A stretch of DNA of 64,000 nucleotides from an uncultured Candidatus Binatia bacterium (GTDB taxonomy: Bacteria; Desulfobacterota; Binatia; UBA9968; JAJDTQ01). The stretch covers positions 2,287,318 to 2,351,317 of the forward strand of contig CBDCOS010000002.1 in the NCBI GenBank assembly GCA_965219905.1, given 5' to 3'. The translations under genes were made by a program, and so were the position numbers. Of the stretch, positions 1-17,004 are shown in pieces (position 1 is the stretch's first letter; the number at the start of each line of letters is the position of its first letter). Below the pieces are notes generated by a model. It was given only the letters and a program-made list of their open reading frames with translations, did no database searches and was not told where the DNA came from.

Positions 1-20
1 TCCGGGACAGGCTGCGGCAC

Positions 21-1781
21 TTGCGAACGTTGACACCACGGACCTGGGTCAGGTTCTTGGCGGAGAGCGGGAAGGGGTTCTTCGCCACGGTGCTCGTGCT
101 CGCCTTCGCCGTGCGCGCGGCCGTGGCTCTCTCCGGCGACTTCGTCCTGCATCCGGACGAGATCATGCAGTACCTGGAGCCTGCGCACCGCCTGGTCTTC
201 GGCAACGGGGTCATCTACTGGGAGTACTTCTACGGCGCGCGCTCCTGGATCATTCCGGGAGCCGTGGCAGGTGTGCTGAAACTGCTGGACGCCATCGGCC
301 TTGGCGAGCCGCGGTGGTACATCGGCGCGGTCAAGCTGGCGTTCTGCGCCGTCTCCCTCGGGATTCCCGCGGGCATGTACTTTTTCGCCCGGCGGCACTA
401 CGGCGAGGCGCCGGCGCGGGTGGCGTTGGTGGCAGGTGCGTTCTGGTACGAGCTCGCCGGCTTCGCGCACAAGCCCATGGCGGAGTTCGTTGCCACCGTT
501 CCGCTCGTGGCGCTGCTGGCGCTCTGCGTGCGGCCCGCTCTGGACGATACCCGAACGGTCCTGCAGGCGGCCTTCCTCGCCGCCATCGCCTCCGCCATAA
601 GGATGCAGTACGCGCCGCTTGCGCTCGTGTTGCTGGGAATCGTGTTCCTGCGTACCCGGAAGAAGGCGCTGCTGGCGGCAGCCATGGCGGGGTTTTGTAT
701 TGCGGTGGGGGTTTTCGACGCGCTTACCTGGGGGGACGGCCTGTTCCACTCCTACCTCACCAACCTCCGCGTCAACCTCGTTATCGCCCCGTTGCGCGCC
801 GGCGAGAGTCCGGCCTATCAGTTCCTCGTGTGGCTTGCCCTCGCCAGCGCCGGCCTCGGCGTGTTGTGCATCGCCGCGGCCCTCCTCCGACCTCGGCGCT
901 ACGGGCTGCTGCTGGTGTTGACGGCCTTGACCCTGGTGCTCCATTCCCTGCAGGCCCACAAGGAGTACCGCTTCGTCTTCGTGATCATTCCGCTCTGGCT
1001 CCTGATCGGCTCGGACCTCGCGGCGCGCCTGGCATCGCAGATGCACGGCCGGCGCCGGCTTGCGGCAGCCGCGGCTGCCGTGTTCGGGGCCGTTTCGCTG
1101 GCCGGAACCATGAACGCCCTGCCGTACCAGGACCGGGTGTACCGGGCATGGTCGAAAGAGACGCGGCACGTGGGTTTCGTGCGCAACCAGGATCCCGTCT
1201 TCGCCGCCTACCGCTACCTCGCCCGCGCGCCCGGCGTCACCGGGGTGTGGCAGCCGGACCGTCCCTATTTCAGCCTGCCGGGGTACTACTACCTTCATCG
1301 CAAGATACCGTTCTATGACCGGTTCTCCGGAAGCGCCCTCGGAAACAGCGCGGTGGCCTCCGTCCTGGTGAGCCACATCGTGACCGAGGACCCGGAGCAT
1401 TCCGTTGCCGGCTACTCCCTGGACCGGGAATTCTCCGGCGTGCGCGTCCTGCGCCGAGACCGGGACCAGCCGCCCGTCCGCCGGTGGCTCGACTACACCC
1501 CCACCATCGTCGGCCGTCTCAAGGCTCGGATCATGGCCCGGATAGACCCGGACGCCCCCGCCCCGCCGGCCAACTGGGGCATCCGTCTGGCCCCCGAGGA
1601 ACGGCCGGTGAGACGGAAGGGGCTCCACGACCGCCGCCGTCTCAGTCACGTTCCAGCCCACCTCATCCATGCTCTCGCGAATAAGCTCGCCCAAGTGCGG
1701 CGGGTTCTGCATCGGGCCGACGCGATCGTTTGCAGTGTCGTTCATGATCAACGCTCCCTTCCGGTCAGTGATAGTCGATAA
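21..1781 (+). CDS. Alg9/PIG-B-like mannosyltransferase (GT22, GT-C fold membrane glycosyltransferase); last ~50 codons probably non-native read-through
   Basis: HPDEIMQYLEPAH, YWEY..GARSW and HKEYRF motifs typical of the PIG-B/Alg9 family; many TM segments; the tail after ~1630 is the antisense of a higA fragment. Confidence 0.8.
   Translation: MRTLTPRTWVRFLAESGKGFFATVLVLAFAVRAAVALSGDFVLHPDEIMQYLEPAHRLVFGNGVIYWEYFYGARSWIIPGAVAGVLKLLDAIGLGEPRWYIGAVKLAFCAVSLGIPAGMYFFARRHYGEAPARVALVAGAFWYELAGFAHKPMAEFVATVPLVALLALCVRPALDDTRTVLQAAFLAAIASAIRMQYAPLALVLLGIVFLRTRKKALLAAAMAGFCIAVGVFDALTWGDGLFHSYLTNLRVNLVIAPLRAGESPAYQFLVWLALASAGLGVLCIAAALLRPRRYGLLLVLTALTLVLHSLQAHKEYRFVFVIIPLWLLIGSDLAARLASQMHGRRRLAAAAAAVFGAVSLAGTMNALPYQDRVYRAWSKETRHVGFVRNQDPVFAAYRYLARAPGVTGVWQPDRPYFSLPGYYYLHRKIPFYDRFSGSALGNSAVASVLVSHIVTEDPEHSVAGYSLDREFSGVRVLRRDRDQPPVRRWLDYTPTIVGRLKARIMARIDPDAPAPPANWGIRLAPEERPVRRKGLHDRRRLSHVPAHLIHALANKLAQVRRVLHRADAIVCSVVHDQRSLPVSDSR
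1632..1745 (-). pseudogene. higA: HigA-family antitoxin, N-terminal fragment
   Basis: Manual translation from ATG 1745 (GGAG RBS): MNDTANDRVGPMQNPPHLGELIRESMDEVGWNVTETAA, then similarity stops before the HTH is complete. Confidence 0.75.
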
Positions 1782-1884
1782 GGTCCACATCCACAGCCTC
1801 GCCGTCCTCGAAGCGGAACGCCACGCGCCAGTTACCGGAGACGCGAACGCTCCACTGGCCCGCACGGCCACCCTTCGGCGGTTG
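1765..1884 (-). pseudogene. higB: HigB/RelE-family toxin, C-terminal fragment
   Basis: Manual translation QPPKGGRAGQWSVRVSGNWRVAFRFEDGEAVDVDLIDYH* matches the HigB C-terminus (HPLKG..WSVRVSGNWR..DYH); 5' part missing; lies directly upstream of the higA fragment. Confidence 0.8.
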
Positions 1885-1900
1885 GTTCTCACACCCGACG
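1871..1900. repeat. Left 30-bp direct repeat (attL-like)
   Basis: 30/30 identical to 5653-5682. Confidence 0.9.
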
Positions 1901-2081
1901 CACCGATGGTGCCTTTTCCGCTTAGGCTCGCCTTCGCATGAACGGACAGAAAGCCCGGTAACTACAGGGTCTTACGGCCCGGCCCGGCCCACGCCGCCGC
2001 GCGGCTTCCCTGACGAAACGCCGCCGCGGCTGCTTCCTGCATTACCGCCCAGCCGCGCGGCACGAACAGGGAGCCGCGACC

Positions 2082-3320
2082 ATGACTAAAAAATCCACCT
2101 TCGCCCGGCGCGTCCGCGCCGCAAAACCCCGAGCGACCAAATACGAAATCCGCGACGACGTGGTGACCGGCCTCGCGCTGACGATCCAGCCCACCGGAGT
2201 CCGCACCTTCTTCCTCGCCCGCATGGTGCGCGGGCGCAGGCGCTACGCCACCATCGGCAGCGCCGACGCCATGACAATCCCCGAGGCGCGGCACGAGGCC
2301 CGCAGGCTGATCGCCAGCTACATCGAACCGGCGAAGCAGGACAGCGGCCCCCGTACGCCGGGGCATCCGATGACCGCCTTCGCCGAGGAGTTCCTCGACC
2401 GGCAGGCCCACCGATGGAAGCCCCGCACCCAGGAAGCCAACAGCCGGTTCGTGCGCAAGGACATCCTGCCCGCCTTCGGCCACCTCACCGTAGACGCCAT
2501 CACGGTCGAACACGTCCGCGACTGGTTCGCCTCCATGAGCGACCGGCCCGGCGTCGCCAACCGAGCCATGCCGGTGCTGTCCATGATGATGCGCATGGCA
2601 GAGCTTTGGGGATACCGCCCCCACAACTCCAATCCCTGCAAGAACACCCGGCGCTACAGGATGAAGCCCGTAGAGCGGTTCCTGACGGCGGAGGAGATGG
2701 CCCGGCTCAACGCCGTGCTGACCCGCGACGAGTTCTGGTGCCCGCACATCGTCGCCATCGTCCGCCTGCTGATGCTGACCGGCTGCCGCTTCGGCGAGAT
2801 CGCCTCGCTGGAATGGGACTGGATCAAGGACAAGCGCATCCACCTTCCCGACTCGAAATCTGGGCCGCGCACGGTCTGGCTGTCGAGCGCCGCGCGGGCG
2901 GTAATCGACGCGATCCCGCGATACAGCGCGGATTGCCCCTGGCTCTTTCCCGCCCGACCGCCGACACGGCCCATCGACAACATCGCCTTCCAGTGGGACC
3001 GCATTCGCGACGAAGCCGGATTGCCCGGCCTGCGGCTGCACGACCTTCGCCACAGCTGGGCGTCCACCGCCGCCATGAACGGCGTGGATATGGTGACCAT
3101 CGCCAGGCTGCTCGGCCATGCGCTGGTCGAGACCACCGAGCGTTATGTCCATCTGTCCGACAGGTCCGTTGCCGACGCTGCTGACCGGGTATCGAACCGC
3201 ATCCATGCGGCCCTGGCTGGAAAGGAGGAAGGTGCAGAGCGCGTGTCCCTCGCTGTGCGTACGGCCCAGGCCGGACCCGATACCCAGCCCAAGGGAGAGT
3301 TCCGCCATGTCCACATTTGA
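2082..3320 (+). CDS. Tyrosine recombinase/integrase 1 (N-terminal arm DNA-binding domain)
   Basis: Arm-type N-terminus (GLALTIQPTGVRTF); catalytic TGCR, DSKSG, HDLRH, LLGH, TERY. Confidence 0.95.
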   Translation: MTKKSTFARRVRAAKPRATKYEIRDDVVTGLALTIQPTGVRTFFLARMVRGRRRYATIGSADAMTIPEARHEARRLIASYIEPAKQDSGPRTPGHPMTAFAEEFLDRQAHRWKPRTQEANSRFVRKDILPAFGHLTVDAITVEHVRDWFASMSDRPGVANRAMPVLSMMMRMAELWGYRPHNSNPCKNTRRYRMKPVERFLTAEEMARLNAVLTRDEFWCPHIVAIVRLLMLTGCRFGEIASLEWDWIKDKRIHLPDSKSGPRTVWLSSAARAVIDAIPRYSADCPWLFPARPPTRPIDNIAFQWDRIRDEAGLPGLRLHDLRHSWASTAAMNGVDMVTIARLLGHALVETTERYVHLSDRSVADAADRVSNRIHAALAGKEEGAERVSLAVRTAQAGPDTQPKGEFRHVHI

Positions 3321-4557
3321 CCTCACCCCGCGCCTTGCCCGCGAGAGCAAGTCCAACGGCAAGGACACCATCCTGTTCGACAAGTCGCTCACCGGTTTCG
3401 GGCTGCGCATCCACCCGTCGGGCCGGAAGGTCTGGATCGTGCAGGCCCGCATCGAGAGGCGGAGCTGCCGCATCGTCATCGCCCGGCACGGCGAGATGGA
3501 GCTTGCCGAGGCCCGCCGCCGCGCCCGTGACATGCTCGCGCGCATCCGCGCGGGCGATAACCCCGCTGACGACATCCGCAGGGAGAGGGAGACCCCGACC
3601 CTGCGGGCGTTCGCGGACGAGTATTTGCGGCGCTGCGAACCCCACTGGAAGCCTTCGGGACGCAGGACCGTGCGCATCTACCTCAAGGCCCGCATCCTGC
3701 CCGCGTTCGGCAGGATGCCGCTGGATGCCGTCGGCGCGCAGGACGTGGCCGCGTGGTTCGACGCGGCGAGCAGGGACAAGCCCGGCGCGGCCAACCGCGC
3801 CCTGGAGATACTGCGCGCGATGATGTTCCGGGCCGAGGAATGGGGATTGCGCGAACGCGGCTCAAACCCCTGTCTCGGTATTGCGAAGAACCCGAGGAAG
3901 CCGGTTGCCCGGTTCCTCGACGCCGACGATCTGGCCCGGCTCGGGCGCGCGCTCGATGCGCACGAAGCACGCTGGCCCGAGGCCGTCGCCGCGATCCGGC
4001 TGCTGGCGCTCACCGGATGCCGCCGCAGCGAAGTGCTCAATCTGCGCTGGCGCGACATCACTGACGACGCCATCAACCTCGCCGACTCGAAAACCGGCCC
4101 GCGCGCGGTGCCGCTCGGCGAGGCCGCGCGGGCGCATGTCGCCGCGCTGCCCCGTGCGCGCGACCCGGACGCCTACCTGTTTCCGCGGTACGCGGAGGCG
4201 CAGGGGCAGTCCAGTCTCATCGCGTGCTGGCGAGCGGTCTGCGCGGATGCGAAGCTCGGCAGCCTGCGCCTGCACGACCTGCGCCATACCGCCGCCAGTC
4301 AAGCAGTCATGGCTGGCGAGAACCTGCCGCTGGTCGGTAAACTGCTTGGTCATCGGCGGCACCGGACCACCGCGGGCTATGCCCACCTTGCGGATGCGCA
4401 CCTTGTCGAGGCGGCGGAGACGGTCGGCACGGTCATTGCCGAGGCGATGCAGGTCGGCGGCGCGGTGCGTCGAGTCGTATCTCGAAGCCGGGATCGCCCC
4501 GCCTCGGCTGGCTCCGGACCCGATCCGGGCGCCTGCATCGGACCCCGCGAATTTTAG
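3307..4557 (+). CDS. Tyrosine recombinase/integrase 2 (N-terminal arm DNA-binding domain)
   Basis: ATG 3307 after AAGGGAG, overlapping the end of integrase 1; GFGLRIHPSGRKVW, TGCR, DSKTG, HDLRH, LLGH, TAGY. Confidence 0.93.
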   Translation: MSTFDLTPRLARESKSNGKDTILFDKSLTGFGLRIHPSGRKVWIVQARIERRSCRIVIARHGEMELAEARRRARDMLARIRAGDNPADDIRRERETPTLRAFADEYLRRCEPHWKPSGRRTVRIYLKARILPAFGRMPLDAVGAQDVAAWFDAASRDKPGAANRALEILRAMMFRAEEWGLRERGSNPCLGIAKNPRKPVARFLDADDLARLGRALDAHEARWPEAVAAIRLLALTGCRRSEVLNLRWRDITDDAINLADSKTGPRAVPLGEAARAHVAALPRARDPDAYLFPRYAEAQGQSSLIACWRAVCADAKLGSLRLHDLRHTAASQAVMAGENLPLVGKLLGHRRHRTTAGYAHLADAHLVEAAETVGTVIAEAMQVGGAVRRVVSRSRDRPASAGSGPDPGACIGPREF

Positions 4558-4773
4558 TGGTCTCCAAGTTCCGGCGAACTCACTTGAGAGAAGGGACCTT
4601 CTCATGAAGAAATTGAAGCTGCCGAAGAAGAGACGCGAGGAGCGCAAGAGCACGTATCCCTCTGCCACGGATGTTGCACCCGAAATGCTTGCTACTTGAT
4701 AATATGCCTTGATCGTGCCAACAGGCTCAACATCATCACGGAACACATCAATTTTACAGGCTGAGGTCAGGAT

Positions 4774-5085
4774 ATGCAGAAAATCACGGCACGTGAGTTC
4801 ACAGGTGAAAAGGCATGGGACGCCTTGGACATCGAGCGAATTGAAGACGCAACCGTGCGGCTTCACTGGACCGATGCACCATACAAATGGCACGTGAACG
4901 ACGGCCCCGAGGTCTTTGTTGTTTTGGACGGTGAGGTAGACATGCACGTTCGCCAGGACGGTGTAGAGAATGTCCTACGTCTGTTGCCAGGCGACATTTT
5001 CCACGCGGAAAACGGCGATGAACATGTTGCCCACCCCGACGGACCAGTCCGTGCGTTGGTCATTGAAAGAGCGGGCAGTATTTAG
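4774..5085 (+). CDS. Cupin domain protein (element cargo)
   Basis: WHVND..EVFVVLDG and GDIFH..GDEH cupin motifs; visibly lower GC than the flanks. Confidence 0.85.
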   Translation: MQKITAREFTGEKAWDALDIERIEDATVRLHWTDAPYKWHVNDGPEVFVVLDGEVDMHVRQDGVENVLRLLPGDIFHAENGDEHVAHPDGPVRALVIERAGSI

Positions 5086-5652
5086 AAGGCGATGATCGCG
5101 GCCACCATTAGGCTGGATAGAGGACTTTCACCTCCACGCTGTCCGCCATGCTCGGCACACCTACCCTGTCGAGTCCGCGGCGCGGTCTGGACCCTTCGGG
5201 CGGGTATCCCTCGCGCTCTGCTCGCTCACGCTTGCCCGGCGGCTCACTTCGTTCACCGCCGCCTACACGACCGGCGGCGGTTGTGTCAGCGCGACCGCTG
5301 GCACGTTCATCAAACCAGCCGGCAGTTGTTTCCGCAATACACCGCGCACTGGTGCCCGCACGACAGCGGACGGTTCCGCCGCCGCCTCCGGCAGTGTACA
5401 GCCCACGACCGCCTGCGGTCCCATCGGCACCGCCATCCTCTCAAGTGTCTCGGCGGCGTCTCCGCATTCCTTCATTGCGATGTTGCCTGGCGCTTCCTAT
5501 ACTTCCGCCCGGAAGCCGCGCGGCGGTTCGGGGACTGTCTCCGCAAGTGCGCGGCGGGCGCTGCCGCTCAGGCGCCGCTTGGGCTAAATGCCGATTGCAC
5601 AACGGCTTTCATCGCCCGACGGATTGAGCGGTCAGGAAGCGCGATCAAGACG

Positions 5653-5682
5653 CCCTTCGGCGGTTGGTTCTCACACCCGACG
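5653..5682. repeat. Right 30-bp direct repeat (attR-like), overlapping the last 12 nt of the host cupin gene
   Basis: Identical to 1871-1900; minus strand 5682-5671 reads CGT CGG GTG TGA (RRV*). Confidence 0.9.
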
Positions 5683-5997
5683 TAGTTCTCCGAACACCGC
5701 GATCCAGATGCACGGCGGCGTGCGGCTGGTGTAGTTCACCCGGTGGCGGCGGTGGGCGGGTATCAGCACATGGTCCCCGGCGCCGAGCCGTCGCGTCTCT
5801 CCGTCTTCGTACTCCAGCACCGCCTCGCCCTGGATCAGCACCACCCATTCGTCGCGGTCCTGGTCGTACCACTCGCCGGGCGACATCTGCCCACGGGAGA
5901 CGATGCGCTCGATCTTCACGCCCCGGTCGGGAATGAGGTCCGTGAACTCCTCCGTATCCGGGAGCGGGTCGGGGATGTCGTAGAGGTTAACCGGCAT
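5671..5997 (-). CDS. Cupin_2 domain protein
   Basis: IERIVSRG, WYDQDRDEWVVLIQG, IPAHRRHRV motifs; overlaps the upstream gene end. Confidence 0.85.
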   Translation of the reverse strand: MPVNLYDIPDPLPDTEEFTDLIPDRGVKIERIVSRGQMSPGEWYDQDRDEWVVLIQGEAVLEYEDGETRRLGAGDHVLIPAHRRHRVNYTSRTPPCIWIAVFGELRRV

Positions 5998-7054
5998 GCT
6001 CCGGCGGCCGGAAGACCGCGAACACCTTGTCGGAGTTGGAGATCCACGACTCCAGGAAGACGATGTCGTCGGGCTTGCGGCCGATCTCGGACATGGCGCC
6101 GGCCAGGGCGAACCAGTTGAGCAGCTCGTGGTGGCCGCGGTCCTCGGCTTCCGGCAGGCTGGTCTTGCGCCAGGTCTCCCAGTCGCCGTCCCGCAGCGCC
6201 TGGAAGTAGCGCTTGTCCGATTCCACGTCCGGGTACATGAAGGCGTGCTTGGCGGTGAGAAACGAGTGCGACCAGCTCGACGAGGCGATCAGCGCCACCC
6301 GCCACGGGCTCTCGGCGAAGGCCCGGGCGGTGGCGGCGCCGATGTCGAAGCAGCGCCAGGGCTGCGGGCCCGGCGGGTCGAACTGGTCCTCGATGTCGCG
6401 GGCGGCGGAAGGCGTCAGCGGGACGCCCCGGCTGCCCACGAGCTTCCGGCCGTAGCTGTTCACGGTGAAGGGCAGTACCGGGTAGGGGAATCCGCGGCGG
6501 TCCCAGTCCAGGTACAGGATGGAGTTCACGAATGCGTGGCCAAGGCCGCGGTGGAGCGGCTTGTAGGAGTAGGCCACGTCGAAGCCGTTGTCCAGCAGGC
6601 TCGACGCCAGGTGTTTGCCGGCCTCCTGGTGCCCCTGGATGGTGAAGACCTTGTCGTCGGGTTCGTCCCACACGTTGGCGCCCCGGCGCATGTGGGTCCA
6701 CGGCTGGGTGTCGACCGTGTCGTAGGCGAGGATGGAGAAGGCCGGCACGCAGTCTTCCTTGTAGTTCTCGTACTGGTCGTCGCCCCACAGCAGGCACAGG
6801 TCGGGCTGGAACTCGTCCAGGGCCTGGCGGGCGATGCGGAAGCGGTCGATGAGGTCCTGGCGGTGCGCTTCCGAGTGGCTCTGGCCGTCGTCCGTGCCCC
6901 ACTGCTCGCGCATGGGCGCGGGCCAGTTCTTCATGTCGCGCAGCCGTTCCGGCAGGCAGGGGTCCTCCAGACACATCTTGATGCGCCGGGTCATGTTCCC
7001 CTGGAACCCGAGTCCGGGGTAGTGGGTGATGCCGAGGCCAAGTATCTCTCCCAT
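5987..7054 (-). CDS. Extradiol ring-cleavage dioxygenase class III (LigB-like)
   Basis: GITHYP, WGDDQYEN, LGHAF, SSSWSH, GHHELLNW motifs; start set at MGEIL (7054). Confidence 0.85.
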   Translation of the reverse strand: MGEILGLGITHYPGLGFQGNMTRRIKMCLEDPCLPERLRDMKNWPAPMREQWGTDDGQSHSEAHRQDLIDRFRIARQALDEFQPDLCLLWGDDQYENYKEDCVPAFSILAYDTVDTQPWTHMRRGANVWDEPDDKVFTIQGHQEAGKHLASSLLDNGFDVAYSYKPLHRGLGHAFVNSILYLDWDRRGFPYPVLPFTVNSYGRKLVGSRGVPLTPSAARDIEDQFDPPGPQPWRCFDIGAATARAFAESPWRVALIASSSWSHSFLTAKHAFMYPDVESDKRYFQALRDGDWETWRKTSLPEAEDRGHHELLNWFALAGAMSEIGRKPDDIVFLESWISNSDKVFAVFRPPEHAG

Positions 7055-7088
7055 GTCCTTCCCCTTAGGCGGCAAACCGCGATGACGT

Positions 7089-7114
7089 GTAGGGGCGACC
7101 GGCGGTCGTCCCCG
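7089..7114. repeat. GTAG-type REP-like palindrome (related copies near 17021, 31742, 33064, 34333)
   Basis: gtaggggcgaccggcggtcgtcccc; gtaagggcgaccggcggtcgcccc at 17021; all intergenic. Confidence 0.6.
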
Positions 7115-7151
7115 TGGCGCGCCGATACCGGTCGTCAATCCCCGCCGCCGC

Positions 7152-7871
7152 TCACGGCAGCGTCCCCAGCAGGCGCCCGTAGCCTTCGACGGGCTCGCGG
7201 ATACGGAGGCGCTTCTGGGTAGCCCACACCTCCGCGTTGAGATTGGTGATCACGGGTACCCCGAGGTCCTCTTCCAGGTACTCGATGGCGGGCATGCAGT
7301 CCCAGCCCGCGCCCAGGAGGTAGACGCACTCTCCGCCGTGCTCGATGAAGGCCTTCTTGGCTTCGCGGTAGATTACCTCGATCGGAATTTCGCCGACGTC
7401 GGAGAAGGCCACGCCTTGGATCTCCCTGACGCCGGTCACCGTGAATCCGGCCTCCTCGATGAAGGCGGCGAACCTGGCGTTCATGGCGCCCTGGATGTAG
7501 GAGAGAACCACCATCGTGCGCACTCCCAGCGCGCGGAAGGCCTCCACCTGCGCGGTGGTCGCGGTGAGCACAGGGACCGAGTACTCCCGGGTGAGCCGCT
7601 CCGTAAGCTCGCCGTCGAAGCGGTAGCCCCGGAGCATGATGGGCGGCACCCCCTGGATCACCACCAGGTCCACCCCGAACTCCGCCAGCTCCGCCACCCT
7701 GGATTCAGCCACGGCGATGGCCTCGTCGAACTCGGCCTCGGTGCCCGCGCGGACGCCGACGTAACGCGGCACGACGCACACTCCGTCCGGCAGGAGCCGC
7801 GTGAAGGTTTCCAGCGAGCCGGGCCGAAACGTCGGCTTCACCACCCCTACCTTGCCGCGCCAGCAGTACAA
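7152..7871 (-). CDS. Maleate isomerase/arylmalonate decarboxylase (Asp/Glu racemase) family protein
   Basis: WRGKVGVVKP N-terminus, PVLTATTAQVEAF, LEEDLGVPVITN; TTG start. Confidence 0.8.
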   Translation of the reverse strand: MYCWRGKVGVVKPTFRPGSLETFTRLLPDGVCVVPRYVGVRAGTEAEFDEAIAVAESRVAELAEFGVDLVVIQGVPPIMLRGYRFDGELTERLTREYSVPVLTATTAQVEAFRALGVRTMVVLSYIQGAMNARFAAFIEEAGFTVTGVREIQGVAFSDVGEIPIEVIYREAKKAFIEHGGECVYLLGAGWDCMPAIEYLEEDLGVPVITNLNAEVWATQKRLRIREPVEGYGRLLGTLP

Positions 7872-7914
7872 GGGCTGTCCTCCCGGTCCTTGAGGTTATC
7901 CTGGCCCCACCCAC

Positions 7915-7945
7915 CCCTGGATTCCAGCTTGCGCGGGAATGACGG
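7915..7945. repeat. dRS3-like REP (GGATTCCCGC-N4-GCGGGAATGACGG family)
   Basis: ctggattccagcttgcgcgggaatgacgg; same family at seven other loci in the window. Confidence 0.75.
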
Positions 7946-7973
7946 TGAGAGGGCACTCACTTGCCCCGCGTCC

Positions 7974-8798
7974 TCAGACCGCGATGGTCTGTCCGCCGTC
8001 CACCACCAGGGCGTGGCCGGTGACGAAGGAGGCTTCGTCGGATACCAGGAACAGCACGCCGTAGGCCATCTCCTCCGGACGCGCCATCCGCAGCAGCGCC
8101 TTGTTGCTGTCGGCCATGCGCTTGCGCTGCTCGGGGGTGGCGGCCTGGAGCGACGGCACCGGCGGGTGCCCGCGGAAGCGCGGGGTCTCGGTGGCGCCGG
8201 GGCAGATGCAGTTCACGCGGACGCCCTTGGGGCCGTAGTCCAGCGCCATCTGCCGGGTGAGGCTGATGACCGCCGCCTTGGTGGCGCAGTAGGCCGGGTA
8301 GTTCGCCGACGCCACCAGCCCGAAGGTAGACGCGGTGCTGACGATGTTGCCGCTGCCCTTCTCGAGCATGTGGGGGACCACCGCACGGACGCTCCTCTGG
8401 ATGGCGTTCAGGTTGAGGTCCATGATGAAGTTCCACTCCTCGTCCGTGTGTTCGTGAGCCTGCTTGCGGATCCCGCCGCCGGCGTTGTTGTAGAGGATGT
8501 CCGCGCCCCCGTACCGGTCCATGGCGGTCTTCATCATCTCCTCGGGACCGCCGTCCAGGGTTACGTTCACGTTCAGGAAGGTGGCCTCGCCGCCCTCGTC
8601 GGTAATGAGCTGGTCCACCCGGGGCGTCATGGTCTCCTGGATGTCGCAGCACACGACGTTGGCCCCCTCGCGCGCGAACAGGCGCGCGGTGGCCCGCCCG
8701 ATGCCGCTGTTGGCCCCGGTGATGATGGCCACCTTGCCCCGCAGCCGCCCCAGTCCTTCTCTCAACATCGGATGTTCGTCGCCGTTCGGTTCTGCCAT
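7974..8798 (-). CDS. Short-chain dehydrogenase/reductase
   Basis: TGANSGIG, NNAG, YCATK; GGAGG RBS before ATG 8798. Confidence 0.93.
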   Translation of the reverse strand: MAEPNGDEHPMLREGLGRLRGKVAIITGANSGIGRATARLFAREGANVVCCDIQETMTPRVDQLITDEGGEATFLNVNVTLDGGPEEMMKTAMDRYGGADILYNNAGGGIRKQAHEHTDEEWNFIMDLNLNAIQRSVRAVVPHMLEKGSGNIVSTASTFGLVASANYPAYCATKAAVISLTRQMALDYGPKGVRVNCICPGATETPRFRGHPPVPSLQAATPEQRKRMADSNKALLRMARPEEMAYGVLFLVSDEASFVTGHALVVDGGQTIAV

Positions 8799-9019
8799 GT
8801 TCAAGCCTCCTTGGATTGTGCGCCTTCCGGCTCACTCTCCCTTATCCGATCACCGGGCGATTTCCAAGGGAAAGGCCGACGCCCCCGGTCCACGCACCTG
8901 CCCGGCTTGTCGTACGCTGGATATCCCAGGCAGGTATGCTGTACAAAAAGTTCTCGCCCGGGCCTCGCATGCATGAAACAAGGCCTGCCTCTCCGTCGGA
9001 ATCGCGTGCCGCAGGGACG

Positions 9020-11038
9020 ATGATAAGCTGGAAACTCCCGGAACTCTCGCGTCAGGACCTGCTGGCGCTGCTGGCTCTTACCGTCATGGTCACGGCCGGC
9101 TACTTCCCGGCGCTGTCGGGCGGCTTCATATGGGACGACAAGATTTTCACGCAGAACGAGGTGATACGGGAGGCGTCCGGGCTCTGGAACATCTGGTTTT
9201 CGCCGGGCGACCTCAAGCTGGAGCACCACCATTGGCCGGTCGTCTATACGACCTTCTGGCTCGAGCACAAGCTCTGGGGATTCGCCCCCCTCGGCTCTCA
9301 CCTCGTCAATGTCGCCCTGCATCTGATCAACTCCGTGCTGGTGTGGCGCCTGTTGCTCCGTCTGGGCGTTCCCTGGGCCTGGTTCGCCGCCGCGGTATTC
9401 GCCGTCCACCCCGTCCACGTGGAGTCGGTGGCCTGGATCATCGAGCGCAAGGACGTGCTCTCCGGCCTGTTCTATCTCGCCGCCGCGTTGACCTGGATCC
9501 GGTTTCTGGAAACGCCCCGATGGGGACGCTACGTTTCGGCGCTGGCCCTCTTCGTGGCGGGGCTGCTGTCCAAATCGGTGGTGGTGACCTTGCCGGCGGC
9601 GTTGCTGATCGAGCGTTGGTGGAAGCAGGGCCGGGTCAGCTCCACGGACCTGTTGCGGACGGCACCGTTTTTCGCGGTGGGCCTGTTCGTCACGCTGGCG
9701 GACCTGTGGTTGTACTACACGTCGCGGACGGCGTTGTCTCTGGGCTACTCCCTGGCCGAGCGGGTCCTGATCGCGGCGCGCGCGTTGTGGTTCTACGCGG
9801 GCAAGCTCTTCTGGCCCGCGGACCTGGCGATTATCTATCCGCGCTGGGACATCCACGCCGGAGATCCGCTGGCCTGGGCGTACGTCATCGCCGCCGCGGC
9901 GCTCGCGGCGGTGCTCTGGCTCGGCCGGCATCGGCTGGGCCGGGGCCCCCTGGCCGGAGTGCTGTTCTTCGCGTTGACCCTGTCGCCGATGCTGGGTTTC
10001 CTGGACTACGGCTTCATGCGGCTCTCCTTTGTCGCCGACCGTTTCCAGTACCTGGCGGCCGGTGGCGTGATGGCCGTGGTCGCCGCCGCGGCGGCCCATG
10101 GCGTGGACCGGTTGTCGGGACCGTGGAAGACGGGCGCGCGGGGCCTGGCTGCGGTGGTGCTGGTGCTTCTCGTGGCAATGACCTGGCGCCAGGCCGGCGT
10201 CTACCGGAACGAGATCACGTTCTTCAGCCACGTCGTATCGCTCAATCCCGGGCAGGCTTACGCTCACGAGCGCCGCACCATCCGGTTGGGCCAGGCGGGT
10301 CGTCTGGAGGAAAGCCTCGATGCCGGCCGCTTCGCCGTGGAGCAGCTCCCGGATTCCGCCGGCGCTCATGCCGTCCTGGGCGTCGCCTTCATGAGGCTCC
10401 GGCGATTCGGCGAGGCCGAGGAGAGCCTGCGCCGTGCCCTGGAGATCGATCCGCGCGACAAGTACGCCCTCAAGAGCATGGGCGAGACGTTGAGGTTTCA
10501 AGGCCGGTTCGAGGACGCCATCGAATGGTACCGCAAGGCCCTCGCGGTCGACCGCAACTACGCCGTGGCCCATGCCGGAACAGCCGATGCCCTGGTCCGC
10601 CTCGGCCGTTTCGACGCGGCCCTCCCGTTCCTGAAGACCGCTGTTTCGCTACGGCCCTACGCGCCCATGGCGGGTCACGTCCATTTCCTCCTGGGCCATG
10701 CGTTGCAACAAATGGACCGGCTCGACGAGGCCGCCGGGCATTACGAGCGCGCCCTGCGATTCCACTGGCGCAAGCCCGATACCCTGGCCCGTCTCGCCGC
10801 CCTGCGTTTCCGCCAGAAGCGCTACGAGGAGGCGCTCGCCCTGTATCGAACCGTGGCCGAGATCGTTCCGTCAAAGGCGGTGATACACTCCAACGTCGGG
10901 GTCGCCCTCTACTACCTGAAACGGTACGAAGAGGCGCTTCGGAGCTTCGAACACGCGCTCTCCCTGGACCCGAAGCTTCGGGATGCCCGCGCCGGCGTCC
11001 GGCAGGCGCGCAAGGCCCTGCGGCGAGGAGAGCCATAG
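9020..11038 (+). CDS. TMTC-like membrane glycosyltransferase (GT-C) with C-terminal TPR repeats
   Basis: FIWDD, HPVHVESVAWIIERKDVL, LLSKS, ADRFQYLA motifs followed by multiple TPRs. Confidence 0.85.
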   Translation: MISWKLPELSRQDLLALLALTVMVTAGYFPALSGGFIWDDKIFTQNEVIREASGLWNIWFSPGDLKLEHHHWPVVYTTFWLEHKLWGFAPLGSHLVNVALHLINSVLVWRLLLRLGVPWAWFAAAVFAVHPVHVESVAWIIERKDVLSGLFYLAAALTWIRFLETPRWGRYVSALALFVAGLLSKSVVVTLPAALLIERWWKQGRVSSTDLLRTAPFFAVGLFVTLADLWLYYTSRTALSLGYSLAERVLIAARALWFYAGKLFWPADLAIIYPRWDIHAGDPLAWAYVIAAAALAAVLWLGRHRLGRGPLAGVLFFALTLSPMLGFLDYGFMRLSFVADRFQYLAAGGVMAVVAAAAAHGVDRLSGPWKTGARGLAAVVLVLLVAMTWRQAGVYRNEITFFSHVVSLNPGQAYAHERRTIRLGQAGRLEESLDAGRFAVEQLPDSAGAHAVLGVAFMRLRRFGEAEESLRRALEIDPRDKYALKSMGETLRFQGRFEDAIEWYRKALAVDRNYAVAHAGTADALVRLGRFDAALPFLKTAVSLRPYAPMAGHVHFLLGHALQQMDRLDEAAGHYERALRFHWRKPDTLARLAALRFRQKRYEEALALYRTVAEIVPSKAVIHSNVGVALYYLKRYEEALRSFEHALSLDPKLRDARAGVRQARKALRRGEP

Positions 11039-11194
11039 AGTAGCGGCTGTGTGTTACCCTTCGAGGCGCAATTCGCTACATTGACTTATCGCGTACAGAG
11101 CGGAGCCGGCGCCCGCGCCGGGGGCGGTGCGTTTCCCGGTGCCGTCGCCGGCGGGTGCCGGACGGCATGCGGGCCATCATCGAGGAGGATCGAC

Positions 11195-12076
11195 ATGAAC
11201 CAGGCGGACGAGAGATACGTTGACGTGGACGGCATCCGCACCCGTTACTTCGAAAAGGGCAGCGGCGAGACGGTGGTGCTGTTCCACGGCGGCAACTTCG
11301 GCTCCAACGAGGCGGCCGACGGCAGCCCCGACTGGGGACTGAACTTCGACGGGCTCGCACAGTGGTTCCACGTCGTCGCCGTGGACAAGCTCGGCCAGGG
11401 GATGACCGACAACCCCAAGAGCGACGAGGACTACACCATGGCCGCGGTGGTGCGGCACGCGCTGGCCACGCTGGAGACCCTGAAGCTCGGCAACGTCCAC
11501 CTGGTGGGGCATTCCCGCGGCGGCTACCTGGTGGCGCGCATGACCCTGGAACGGGCGGATCTGATCAAGTCCGTGATCCCGGTGGACACCAACACCCTGG
11601 CCCCCGGAGTCGGAAGGAACGAGGTCGTGCATGCCAACGCCCCGGAGCCGCGGCTGAGCCGGGAGAGCCAGCGTTGGGTGTTGGAGCGCTATTCTTACGG
11701 CTACGACCACGTCACCGACGACTGGCTCGACGACTGCGTGGAAATCGCCCAACAGCCCAAGTACCTGGAGGCGGTGGAGAAGATGGAGACCCAGGGGCTC
11801 AAGGCCAACGTCTTCCTGGCCCGGCACGCGCGGCAGAAGGAAGAGACCCTGGGCTGGATCCGGGACCGCGGCTTCCAACGGCCCACGCTGCTCGTGTGGG
11901 GCTATAACGACCCCACTGCCACCCTCGACCAGGGCATGCGCCTTATGGAGCTCATGGCGGGAAGCGAGCGCCGCACCCAGATGCACATCATCAACGAGGC
12001 CGGCCACTTCTCGTACCGGGAGCATCCCGCGGAGTTCAACGAGGTGCTGCGGGGCTTCATCGCCGCGCAGCAATAG
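11195..12076 (+). CDS. Alpha/beta hydrolase (meta-cleavage product hydrolase-like)
   Basis: FHGG, GHSRGG nucleophile elbow, WGYND, AGHF; GAGGAGG RBS. Confidence 0.85.
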   Translation: MNQADERYVDVDGIRTRYFEKGSGETVVLFHGGNFGSNEAADGSPDWGLNFDGLAQWFHVVAVDKLGQGMTDNPKSDEDYTMAAVVRHALATLETLKLGNVHLVGHSRGGYLVARMTLERADLIKSVIPVDTNTLAPGVGRNEVVHANAPEPRLSRESQRWVLERYSYGYDHVTDDWLDDCVEIAQQPKYLEAVEKMETQGLKANVFLARHARQKEETLGWIRDRGFQRPTLLVWGYNDPTATLDQGMRLMELMAGSERRTQMHIINEAGHFSYREHPAEFNEVLRGFIAAQQ

Positions 12077-12185
12077 GGGTAGAGACGGGCCGCGCCGCGG
12101 CATCGTAGCGGGACGATCGTTTCCAACTTGAAAAAACACGGTACATCACCCATCATCCAAGACTACTACGTATGGAGGTAATCCC

Positions 12186-12527
12186 ATGGGCAAATACATG
12201 TTCCACACTTCGTACACCGCGAAAGGGCTTCCGGGCCTGCTCAAGGAGGGCGGCAGCCGGCGGCGGGCGGCGTTGACCCAGACCATCGAAGGAATGGGCG
12301 GCAGCGTGGAGGGGCTCTACTACGCCTTCGGCGATACGGACCTCTACATCATCGCCGATCTTCCCGACGACGCCACGGCGACGGCCGTGTCGCTTAACAT
12401 CGCCGATGCCGGCGCCCTCACTGTCAAGGCCACCGTGCTGATCACGCCGGAGACGGTGGACGAGGCGGTCAAGAAGAAGGTGCCCTACCGGCCGCCCGGA
12501 GCCCGCGCCGCTCGCGGCCGCAAGTAG
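12186..12527 (+). CDS. GYD domain protein
   Basis: YYAFGDTDLYIIADLPD pattern; GGAGG RBS. Confidence 0.8.
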   Translation: MGKYMFHTSYTAKGLPGLLKEGGSRRRAALTQTIEGMGGSVEGLYYAFGDTDLYIIADLPDDATATAVSLNIADAGALTVKATVLITPETVDEAVKKKVPYRPPGARAARGRK

Positions 12528-14535: not shown

Positions 14536-14574
14536 CCCGGAAGCCCCGGCCGAGGTACCCATCCACGCCACACC

Positions 14575-14624
14575 CCTGGATTCCCGCTTTCGCGGGAATG
14601 ACGGAGAGGGGCGGGAATGACGGA
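14575..14624. repeat. dRS3-like REP plus extra half-site
   Basis: cctggattcccgctttcgcgggaatgacggagaggggcgggaatgacgg. Confidence 0.8.
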
Positions 14625-14706
14625 AGGGGCCGCTACTCCGCGAGGGAGCGGACGGGCTCATTGCCTGCCCACCGAACTTCCGATAAGAAGGTGTGCGGAG
14701 ACACCC

Positions 14707-17004
14707 ATGAGAAAACAACGACTGTCGGTGGCCGGGCGCAATTCCATGCGGGTGGACGCGGTGGAGAAGGTGTCCGGCAAGGCGTTCTATACCGGGGACA
14801 TCGAGCTTCCGGGAATGGCGTATGCCAAGATCCTGAGGAGCCCGTTGCCCCATGCGCGGATACTCAACGTCGACGCAAGCAAGGCGCGGGAGTTGCCCGG
14901 GGTCATCGACGTGCTGACACGGGACGAGCTCGCAGGCCTCAACTACCAGTACGGCGCCACCTACAAGGATCAGTCCGTGGTGGCGACGGACAAGGTCCGC
15001 TACGTCGGCGACCCGGTGGCCGCGGTGCTGTCGGCGGACGAGCTGGTGGCCGAGGAGGCCCTGGCGCTCATCGACGTGGAGTACGAGGAGCTGCCGTTCG
15101 TGGACAACGTGGACGACGCCCTGGCGCCGGGGGCGCCGCAGGTGCACGAGGGCGACGTGGCCAAGGCCGAGCTGCGGGGATCGAGGTACGGCGCGCCGCC
15201 CCGGTTCAAGGGCACCAACGTCTGCTACCACTTCGGCTACTCCCGGGGCGACGTGGAGGACGGCTTCGCCAAGTCCGACCACGTCTTCGAGGACGTCTTC
15301 CGCTTCTCCAAGGTGCAGCACTACTCGCTGGAGCCCCACATCTGCCTCGCCCACTACGACGGCGAGCGGCTGACGGTGTGGAGCTCGTGCCAGGACCCGT
15401 TCACGCTGAGGGGGCACCTGGCCGGGATCTTCAAGCTGCCGCTCAACCGGGTGCGGGTGGTGGTGCCCTACGTCGGCGGCGGCTACGGCGGCAAGCTCTA
15501 CGTCAAGGCCGACCCCATCGCGGCGGCGCTGTCGGTGCGGAACGGTCGGCCGGTCAAGCTGGCCATGAGCGTCAACGAGAGCTTCAAGACGGTGACGCGC
15601 CATCCCGCGCGCATCCGCATCAAGACCGGGGTGAGCAGGAAGGGCGAGATGATGGCCCGGGAGCTGGAGGTCTACATGGACACCGGCGCCTACGCCGACG
15701 CCGGTCCCCGGGTGACCCAGAAGGCCGGCTACCGGGCGGTGGGTCCCTACCGCGTCGCCAACGTCAAGATCGACGCCCACGGCGTCTACAGCAACACGGT
15801 GCCGGCGGGGGCGTTCCGCGGCTTCGGCGCGGTGCAGGTGGCCTGGGCCTACGAGTCGCAGATGGACATGATCGCCAACCGGCTCGGCATGGACCCGCTG
15901 GACTTCCGCCTCAAGAACCTGCTGGAGAAGGGCGAGCCCTACACCCCCGGCGACACCCCGGTGGACTGCGACCTCAAGCAGGGGCTTCGCAAGGTGGCCC
16001 GGGCGCTGGACTGGAAGAAGGCCTCCGGGCCCAACGTCGGCAAGGGGTTGAGCGTGTGCCTGAAGGACGCCGGGGGCACCTACAAGGTGGCGGGGGCGAC
16101 GGTGAAGATGTCGTCGGACGGCAGCGCGGTGCTGCTCACCGGAACGGTGGAGGTGGGGCAGGGATGCCGCACGGCGCTCAGCCAGGTGGTGGCGGAGGAG
16201 CTGGGCATCGAGCTCGAGCAGGTGTCGGTGGCGCAACTGGACACCGACGTGACCCCGTTCGACGTCTCCACCAGCGCCAGCAGCTCCATGACGGTCATGG
16301 GCCTCGCGACCCAGCGGGCCGCCCAGGACGTCAAGAAGCAGTTGCTGCGGGCGGCGGCCAGGGTCATGAAGGAGAAGGCCGGCGACCTCACGCTCAAGGG
16401 CGGCCGGGTGCGCGCCGGCAAGGGCCGGGGGGTGGCCTACAGCGACATCATTTCCGAGTACTTCGGCAGCTCCGCCACCGAGATCGTCGGCCGCGGGGTG
16501 TACCAGGACAAGAAGAGCAAGACCGCGGTACTGGGCTCCCCCACCACCTTCTGGGAGGTGGGCTGGGGCGGCGTGGAGCTGGAGGTGGACCCGGAGACCG
16601 GCGTCATCCGCATCCTCAAGTACGTGTCCATGGCCGACGTGGGCCGGGCCATCAACCCGTTGCAGTGCGAGGGCCAGGACGAGGGCGGCGTGGTCTTCGC
16701 CATCGGGCACACGCTGCTGGAAGACATGGTGTACGAGAACGGCCAGCTCCTGAACCCGAACCTCATCGACTACCGGGTGCCGAACTTCCACGACCTGCCG
16801 GAGAACTTCATCTCCGAGCTGGTGGAGAGCGGCAACGGCCCCGGCCCGTTCGGCGCCAAGGGCATGGGCGAGGGCGGCGTGCTGCCGGCCGCTTCCGCCA
16901 TTGCCGCGGCGGTGGAAGACGCCGTGGGAGTGCGCATCTGCGACCTGCCGCTGTCGCCGCCCAAGGTGTGGCAGCGGCTGCAGGAGCGCGCGAGCGCCGG
17001 CTAA
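14707..17004 (+). CDS. Xanthine dehydrogenase family molybdopterin-binding large subunit
   Basis: VGGGYGGK, GAFRGFG, EVGQG, GQDEGG, GAKGMGE Moco motifs. Confidence 0.92.
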   Translation: MRKQRLSVAGRNSMRVDAVEKVSGKAFYTGDIELPGMAYAKILRSPLPHARILNVDASKARELPGVIDVLTRDELAGLNYQYGATYKDQSVVATDKVRYVGDPVAAVLSADELVAEEALALIDVEYEELPFVDNVDDALAPGAPQVHEGDVAKAELRGSRYGAPPRFKGTNVCYHFGYSRGDVEDGFAKSDHVFEDVFRFSKVQHYSLEPHICLAHYDGERLTVWSSCQDPFTLRGHLAGIFKLPLNRVRVVVPYVGGGYGGKLYVKADPIAAALSVRNGRPVKLAMSVNESFKTVTRHPARIRIKTGVSRKGEMMARELEVYMDTGAYADAGPRVTQKAGYRAVGPYRVANVKIDAHGVYSNTVPAGAFRGFGAVQVAWAYESQMDMIANRLGMDPLDFRLKNLLEKGEPYTPGDTPVDCDLKQGLRKVARALDWKKASGPNVGKGLSVCLKDAGGTYKVAGATVKMSSDGSAVLLTGTVEVGQGCRTALSQVVAEELGIELEQVSVAQLDTDVTPFDVSTSASSSMTVMGLATQRAAQDVKKQLLRAAARVMKEKAGDLTLKGGRVRAGKGRGVAYSDIISEYFGSSATEIVGRGVYQDKKSKTAVLGSPTTFWEVGWGGVELEVDPETGVIRILKYVSMADVGRAINPLQCEGQDEGGVVFAIGHTLLEDMVYENGQLLNPNLIDYRVPNFHDLPENFISELVESGNGPGPFGAKGMGEGGVLPAASAIAAAVEDAVGVRICDLPLSPPKVWQRLQERASAG

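Follow-up and report, generated by a model that had tools for sequence, protein, structure and literature searches.

The question raised by this locus is whether two overlapping integrase genes enclosed by identical direct repeats form a mobile element in their own right and, if so, how it moves and whether it belongs to a described class. The locus lies near the left end of a window of 64,000 nucleotides from an uncultured Candidatus Binatia bacterium (assembly GCA_965219905.1, contig CBDCOS010000002.1, positions 2,287,318 to 2,351,317 of the forward strand), which is the whole stretch of DNA analysed here. The element, designated E1, spans positions 1871-5682 and is, with its 3,812 bp, the smallest of 12 elements of its family that could be delimited; the name E0 is used for an earlier element postulated at the same site, and loci used for comparison are cited by number (L014 and so on). 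With a probability of roughly 60%, we consider E1 to be intact and to belong to a family of small integrative elements which are site-specific and run by a fixed pair of integrases, IntA and IntB. The proposed anatomy consists of a core, a left arm, intA-intB, variable cargo, a right arm and a second core, and movement would take place by recombination between the attachment sites of the element (attP) and of its target (attB) within the core of about 14 bp. The parts of E1 are as follows.

1871..1900, no strand: left 30-bp copy (attL), made up of the last ~16 bp of the right (P) arm (hairpin half and TTGGTTC), probably kept from E0, followed by the core TCACACCCGACG
1901..2081, forward strand: left (P') arm, with a palindrome, then conserved GCTTCC motifs, then the ribosome-binding region of intA
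2082..3320, forward strand: intA, P4-type tyrosine integrase of 412 aa (R236 K259 H320 R323 H346 Y355)
3307..4557, forward strand: intB, paralogous P4-type tyrosine integrase of 416 aa (R239 K262 H323 R326 H349 Y358)
4774..5085, forward strand: cargo gene for a Cupin_2 protein of 103 aa (28.3 bits against a cut-off of 27.2), in a low-GC patch at ~4560-5090
5086..5472, no strand: spacer of 387 bp with no recognisable gene (two long frames without Pfam match, unaligned to sister elements)
5473..5652, forward strand: right (P) arm, with a promoter-like site, three GGAAGC motifs, a hairpin and a T-rich run to the core
5653..5682, no strand: right 30-bp copy (attR), which provides the host cupin gene with its three final codons and its stop

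The initial annotation, made from the letters of the window, had described two overlapping, paralogous, arm-binding tyrosine recombinases with a full catalytic set, and this description is confirmed. Both proteins score above the Pfam cut-offs for Arm-DNA-bind_3, Phage_int_SAM_3, Phage_int_M and Phage_integrase, both carry the R-K-HxxR-H-Y residues, and they are 38% identical to each other (146/382, E 4e-73). Their genes overlap by 14 nt with nothing in between, an arrangement which recurs in the intact copies of the family, and they are probably translationally coupled. NCBIfam has no specific model for either protein, the XerC and XerD models giving 61.8 and 44.5 bits for IntA and 53.3 and 50.6 bits for IntB, with cut-offs of 335 and 330, respectively. 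The fear that one of the two might turn out to be degenerate was not borne out, as all six catalytic residues (R-K-H-R-H-Y) are kept in 29 of 29 IntA and 25 of 25 IntB sequences. The median ratio of non-synonymous to synonymous substitution rates (dN/dS) is 0.31 for IntA and 0.28 for IntB (78 pairs each, from 13 elements; the IntB row of L068, with a ratio of 1.69, stems from mis-registered codons and is to be disregarded). Both integrase genes are demonstrably intact and under similar purifying selection. Synonymous distances amount to only 0.3-0.8 between hosts of different phyla, and such low values point to recent horizontal spread. At L029, L032, L043, L046 and L048, the intA frame lacks a stop and is open over 600-800 codons, crossing intB in a different frame, which may be chance in GC-rich DNA or the effect of a lost stop codon.

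The pairing of the two genes is conserved well beyond this locus. The genome that contains E1 has 20 integrases of this type, arranged as nine adjacent same-strand pairs and two singles, and in a tree of the 20 the upstream members group together and the downstream members likewise, in parallel order. A sister element on another contig, P6 (5,248 bp, with an 18-bp repeat), encodes an IntA and an IntB which are 76% and 80% identical to those of E1; the two elements are 79% identical over the left arm, intA and intB (2,598 nt) and 79% identical over their last 211 bp, with nothing in common in between. Among public genomes, taken as one per species, 39 loci with relatives of IntA were found (51-87% identity), in records titled Alphaproteobacteria, Gammaproteobacteria, Acidobacteria, Thermodesulfobacteriota, ‘Deltaproteobacteria’ and Candidatus Binatia. 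A near-full intA is present in 26 of them, the other 13 being fragments, and intB comes directly next in 24 of the 26 (frameshifted or truncated in four of these); one of the remaining two has intB 3.4 kb off behind an insertion, and the other, which is the most divergent (61%), has none. As far as these genomes tell, intA-intB is a conserved, co-inherited module across at least five phyla and not an accident, in line with the earlier proposal of a compact mobile element built around twin integrases. That the genes are chance neighbours, left behind when two unrelated single-integrase islands inserted next to each other and were largely deleted, is hardly credible: tandem stacking does occur in the family (at L037 and L043, and in the E0 remnant described below), but the explanation is refuted by the synteny of intA followed by intB across phyla, and there is just a single left and a single right arm to each pair. 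At several loci, a second and divergent integrase pair lies nearby, and distant pairs of the same build are found on the megaplasmid of Shewanella oneidensis MR-1 and on an Aurantiacibacter plasmid, where they are annotated merely as ‘site-specific integrase’ and ‘tyrosine-type recombinase/integrase’.

The ends of E1 are marked by a 30-bp direct repeat, CCCTTCGGCGGTTGGTTCTCACACCCGACG, which is identical at 1871-1900 and 5653-5682; allowing up to three mismatches, it is present in these two places only in the 5.09-Mb genome, with no match for the reversed control. An exact repeat of at least 11 bp, with one copy 177-187 bp upstream of intA and the second 4.2-10.4 kb downstream, was found in 11 of 29 loci. 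These 11, together with one added later, make up the 12 delimited elements, which range in size from 3.8 to 10.4 kb; at the other loci, the contig broke off, no right end was reached within the 8.7 kb available, or the common part was shorter than 11 bp. The repeats of the relatives measure 12-21 bp, and the core common to the 12 elements is TCACACC-NN-ACGCA (~14 bp). Collecting the homologous pairs and comparing their ends, as had been suggested beforehand, showed bounding repeats in these 12 elements, and the repeats reported at both ends of E1 are exact, but their length of 30 bp is probably a local accident.

The left arm, of about 185 bp, is conserved down to the start codon of intA in the 12-element alignment, while conservation of the right arm extends over about 190 bp; right arms occur at 28 places, corresponding to 25 distinct copies (mean column identity 85%). 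E1 has all the features by which the family is defined, namely intA-intB, the 185-bp left arm, the 190-bp right arm and the core at both ends. The motif GCTTCC occurs two to three times in the left arm and GGAAGC three times in the right arm, and these motifs are putative arm-type binding sites. A 16-nt perfect inverted match between the arms is found in four of the 12 elements including E1, the rest having shorter matches centred on GGAAGC. The right arm ends in the hairpin GACGCC-CTTC-GGCG, followed by a T-rich run abutting the core. Every left arm has a palindrome with a 5-bp stem and a 3-nt loop directly 3' of the core, which in E1 is GCACC-GAT-GGTGC at 1900-1912. The stem varies across elements (GCACC/GGTGC, GCATC/GATGC, GCGCC/GGCGC and GCATT/AATGC) and the pairing is retained in 149 of 150 cells, with changes on both sides in three of the five pairs (32 left arms, 30 distinct); none of 500 shuffles attained the same pairing or covariation, and sliding the partner gave 24-52% pairing. 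That the bases change while the pairing stays suggests recognition of a folded strand or a cruciform. A similar palindrome is present in about half of the right-hand target flanks, the flank of E1 being without one. For the 25 right arms, RNAalifold gave a covariation term of only -0.77, with double changes in 2 of 38 pairs; a small RNA is therefore unsupported by structure, and the layout of promoter and hairpin is the only feature that speaks for it. A search against Rfam (positions 1-12000, E<=1) gave no match at the ends or arms of the element, the sole match within E1 being a weak, sub-threshold hammerhead inside intA.

Relatives of the same genus in which the site is empty have the glycosyltransferase gene followed by the cupin gene after 67 bp (L019) or 138 bp (L016). 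Homology of the window to these two loci breaks at 1610 and resumes at 5689-5690, and the DNA from about 1611 to 5688 is an insertion relative to the genus relatives. The features flanking E1 are the following.

21..1610, forward strand: host glycosyltransferase gene (Glyco_transf_22), from Pfam and the comparison with L016 and L019
1633..1745, reverse strand: higA', N-terminal fragment of a HigA antitoxin gene (~38 codons), from its translation and the region of 85% nucleotide identity
1768..1876, reverse strand: higB', encoding the C-terminal 36 residues of a HigB toxin including the stop, from its translation, Pfam and the full-length higB of L066
5671..5997, reverse strand: host cupin gene, from Pfam and the L015 and L019 sequences

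The right junction falls within the 3'-terminal codons of the host cupin gene, the product of which ends in ...VFGELRRV* here and in ...VFGELG* and ...VFGRLS* in relatives without the element (from the sequences of L015 and L019), with RRV and the stop coming from the repeat. There is no tRNA or tmRNA gene in the window. The proposed insertion at the 3' end of a protein gene rather than at a tRNA gene is correct for the right junction of E1 but cannot be generalised to the family, since five of the 12 elements lie at the ends of other elements, as detailed below. On the left, the stop codon of the glycosyltransferase gene is lost (GAG at 1596-1598, where relatives have TAG), and the frame of this gene extends to 1781, giving about 60 extra codons (1596-1781) that run across the antisense of the higA remnant.

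The left flank holds what appears to be a remnant of E0. The region 1633-1884 has 85% nucleotide identity to the intact higA-higB genes just inside the right arm of the L040/L066 element (L066 is the same DNA as L040 and was counted once). The higB fragment matches profile positions 57-87 of the 91 of the Pfam HigB-like_toxin model with 25.8 bits, just below the cut-off of 27, and it ends at CCCTTC, where the 30-bp repeat starts. The full-length higB of L066 reads ...GTCGCCCTTCAGGGG..., and the window switches at CCCTTC to the right-arm end ...CCCTTCGGCGGTTGGTTCTCACACC. We infer that the left repeat copy is the leftover right end of E0, joined to the higB fragment at the CCCTTC microhomology. 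According to the proposed history, E0, carrying higBA, would have occupied the site first, and E1 would have integrated in tandem at its right attachment site; E0 would then have been cut down by two deletions, the first from the glycosyltransferase gene into higA and the second from higB to its own right-arm hairpin. The greater length of the repeat compared with those of the relatives would arise because both copies hold the last 16 bp of the right arm in addition to the core, as a consequence of the E0 tandem.

This history also leads to the alternative that the family is mobile and E1 itself is stranded, the promoter-bearing right arm of its upstream neighbour having been deleted and its left attachment site being a hybrid. 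A sigma-70-like site, TTGCGA-17-TATACT (family form TTG...-17-TA.A.T), is located at 5475-5503 in the right arm and points at attR. It was the sole match in a scan of positions 1600-6000 and is directed away from the integrase genes, and the 181 bp preceding intA gave no match. These observations, together with the fact that only 30 bp of the right end of E0 remain, favour a stranded copy, but both genes, both arms and both cores are intact and the scan was a simple consensus match. We consider it doubtful, though worth keeping in mind, that E1 has lost its mobility in this way.

Evidence for excision was sought in the assembled Logan contigs of four runs, in which neither a circle joint of E1 (5682 to 1901) nor an emptied site was found, contigs being unable to show absence. 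In run X18, one contig (depth 3.7) has position 5682 joined via 33 other letters to position 1934. These 33 letters fit the left arm of a relative, which by sequence assigns the contig to a related element, present as a circle or in tandem, and not to E1.

A number of observations weigh against E1 being an intact element run by a fixed integrase pair. The evidence on its excision consists of assembled contigs only, in which the sole joint of a right end to a left end belongs to the related element just mentioned. The ancestral empty spacer has no core and the left junction is a deletion scar, and therefore the first insertion at the E1 site is not reconstructable. Two close relatives (L014/L025 and L017/L026) have a single core beside the same cupin gene, with no second core and no twin integrases within 19.5 kb of that gene; low-GC DNA common to both genomes precedes the single core, and about 75 bp of the right arm are kept in one of them and none in the other. 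As for the pair itself, contact between IntA and IntB would be a deduction from sequence, two divergent intA-like genes (61% and 51% identity) are solitary, and the deep nodes of a superfamily tree with outgroups are unresolved (one row of this tree, L037x_D, is in a bad frame). In the other pair family of this genome, the two members are nearer relatives of one another than of IntA or IntB, so pairing may have arisen more than once.

The targets of the family provide a further line of evidence. Five of the 12 elements (P6, L028, L034, L035 and L039) have a YAcAr gene upstream, at a distance of about 1.2 kb, and the other seven are in other places. The left flank of P6 is part of a repeat of at least 11 kb which encodes RadC, SSB, a DUF7146-Toprim primase, a Strawberry-notch-like helicase, DUF4326 and YAcAr, a gene set of a type known from the leading regions of conjugative elements; the repeat is referred to here as similar to an integrative and conjugative element (ICE-like). 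Nine copies of the ICE-like end exist in this genome, each with the hairpin, TTGGTTC and the core, eight of them without a twin-integrase element and one with P6. The flanks of P6 are joined around a single core in one unoccupied copy in its own genome and in 8 loci in relatives, and in two other relatives a left arm of the E1 family is found at the P6 insertion point. These alignments demonstrate that the insertion point of P6 is precisely the core of a site which elsewhere is empty, giving an attB/attL/attR set for this element. Judging from the flanks, the target used most often by the family (five of 12) is an att-like site at which multi-copy ICE-like elements end, and twin-integrase elements would spread by sitting in tandem with these and being carried along. 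The division of targets between ICE-like ends and other places could be taken to mean that each integrase works alone on a target of its own, for instance one on ICE ends and the other on chromosomal sites. We find this improbable, as all 12 elements have a single pair of ends and one type of core, and the 14-nt gene overlap fits joint expression.

The ICE-like ends were also considered as the possible right ends of the other twin-integrase family of the genome, which was ruled out by the lack of a core upstream of those pairs. This second family (L074, G000:C3:1060500-1070500, and L075, G000:C3:1518500-1525500) has 35-40% identity to IntA/IntB and comprises four copies at 95-97% nucleotide identity and two further related copies, with upstream repeats of GGTTTCGGGTTTYCGTTCGGTSA in place of the core of the E1 family. 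A 3.4-kb segment (L074:1796-5176, G000:C3:1062296-1065676), 99-99.6% identical at three loci, is inserted at one and the same position immediately before three different integrase pairs and encodes an IS66-family transposase and a DruA-domain protein. In the ICE-like repeat beside P6 (L096, G000:C3:371000-389000), a reverse-transcriptase gene is split into the parts 11695-12501 and 14606-15442, and between these lies a gene for a large serine recombinase, on the opposite strand.

The possibility of assigning both integrases to one element raises the question of how they share the work. Arm-binding integrases of the lambda or P4 type are taught to act as homotetramers, with a separate excisionase determining the direction of recombination. 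No excisionase, relaxase, replication or phage gene was detected by Pfam in E1, as the initial annotation had stated. We favour a joint heteromeric complex, in which IntA and IntB would act together and each would serve a different half of the asymmetric core, over a split by direction and over separate specificities; we give it about an even chance of being correct. A separate excisionase would not be needed. In the alternative of a split by direction, one integrase would integrate while the other would replace the excisionase and drive or direct excision. The elements have only the integrases and the arms in common, with no excisionase-like gene conserved, and both proteins are arm-binding, with several GGAAGC-type sites in both arms, all of which is compatible with such a split. 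The full catalytic set is nonetheless kept under the same constraint in every orthologue of both proteins, which an accessory factor would not need, and no arm-binding integrase is known to us that works in a single direction. We therefore regard a division of labour by direction as unlikely, if less so than two separate specificities.

Taken further, the elements may form a distinct class of minimal hitch-hiking elements with a heteromeric arm-binding integrase and without an excisionase, in which three more features would combine. The attachment sites would be recognised partly via the hairpins flanking the crossover point; the junction would act as a switch of integrase expression, the right-arm promoter reading intA-intB only in a circle or a tandem; and landing at ICE-like ends would result in carriage between phyla and in the spread of restriction-modification and toxin-antitoxin genes. 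This combination as a whole is put forward tentatively, with less confidence than any we place in the shared complex. Two arm-binding integrases inherited as a unit, both catalytically intact and without an excisionase, would make a long-assumed rule testable, and with its 3.8 kb E1 is small enough to be rebuilt and assayed in a laboratory host. Stacking at ICE-like ends also offers an explanation for how DNA without transfer genes could cross between phyla.

The Cupin_2 gene is the only recognisable cargo gene of E1, in agreement with the single cargo gene noted at first, and lies in a patch of 51-56% GC within surroundings of about 67% GC. Elsewhere in the family, MmeI-type restriction-modification enzymes are encoded in five of the 12 elements and HigBA adjoins the right arm in six; other cargo includes GmrSD-HNH with an EcoRI-type methylase, Mrr, a methylase-HNH fusion, an ion channel with a nuclease, and an ankyrin protein, and two elements have nothing recognisable as cargo. 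As judged from these annotations, the family carries defence genes between very distant bacteria, the cargo being mostly restriction-modification and HigBA. The elements appear to be common vehicles of restriction-modification and toxin-antitoxin genes among unculturable symbionts. No relaxase was found by Pfam in E1 or in the 12 elements, an origin of transfer not being recognisable by such methods.

Two other repeats were observed near the element. At 7070-7122 of the window, after a dioxygenase-like gene, there is a 53-bp sequence which occurs with 83-93% identity in many places in most genomes of the genus and looks like a repetitive extragenic palindrome (REP)-like intergenic repeat. A sequence of 29-35 bp with the palindrome CCCGCTTTCGCGGG is present at ~14571-14605 and upstream of the window, at least 4 times within 25 kb around E1.

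Among known systems, the islands and satellites with a single P4-type integrase (Arm-DNA-bind_3 / DUF4102) are close to E1 in protein architecture, in the integrase gene adjoining one end, in their short direct repeats, in their conserved arms with repeated sites and in their small cargo. E1 differs from them by its fixed integrase pair, the absence of a tRNA target and of an excisionase gene, and a core flanked by hairpin-forming palindromes; the repetition of the 3' end of a tRNA or tmRNA gene, by which tRNA-targeting islands are recognised, is not seen in E1. XerC and XerD are two paralogous tyrosine recombinases that form one heterotetramer on an asymmetric site. They resemble IntA and IntB in being paralogous and serve as the model for the proposed mechanism, but they are without arm-binding domains and act in chromosome dimer resolution, and IntA and IntB score far below the equivalog cut-offs. 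Tandem accretion of integrative elements at a common att site, of the ICESt1/CIME type, was reportedly described by Pavlovic et al. in 2004; the likeness lies in stacking at one core, in a small non-conjugative element beside a larger ICE-like one, and in the decay of older members.

The groups with multiple tyrosine recombinases described so far are tabulated as ICEs and integrative mobilizable elements (ICE/IME), strand-biased circularizing integrative elements (SE), GInt, RIT and Tn554 (PMC10214605). Tn554 has two adjacent tyrosine recombinases, both required for movement (PMC3414803, PMC10214605), and a third gene, tnpC, its recombinases being of the simple type (PMC8138268). Compared with this set of TnpA, TnpB and TnpC, the E1 family has no third conserved gene, and both of its proteins are of the arm-binding P4 type. 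SEs have the gene order intA-tfp-intB-srap and imperfect terminal inverted repeats, and are given as restricted to Gammaproteobacteria (PMC10214605). They are similar to E1 in being small and site-specific, with intA and intB at the left end and cargo, whereas in E1 the two genes overlap, no srap-like gene is conserved and the ends are direct repeats. In RIT elements, the overlapping recombinase genes RitA, RitB and RitC are inherited as a block flanked by inverted repeats, and BIM elements combine one recombinase with an SMC-like protein (PMC3414803). E1, as opposed to RIT, has two P4-type genes and direct repeats, and its next open frame is that of the cupin. In the classification paper of Smyshlyaev et al., the terms searched led to no text about integrases in tandem or in pairs, and the literature searched gave no description of paired P4-type integrases. 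The suggestion that E1 is a candidate for an undescribed class has held up so far, as it matches none of the described multi-recombinase families checked (SE, GInt, RIT and Tn554). By the published descriptions, E1 lacks a defining feature of each of the four and is set apart from all of them, and the twin-integrase family to which it belongs is apparently both widespread and undescribed.

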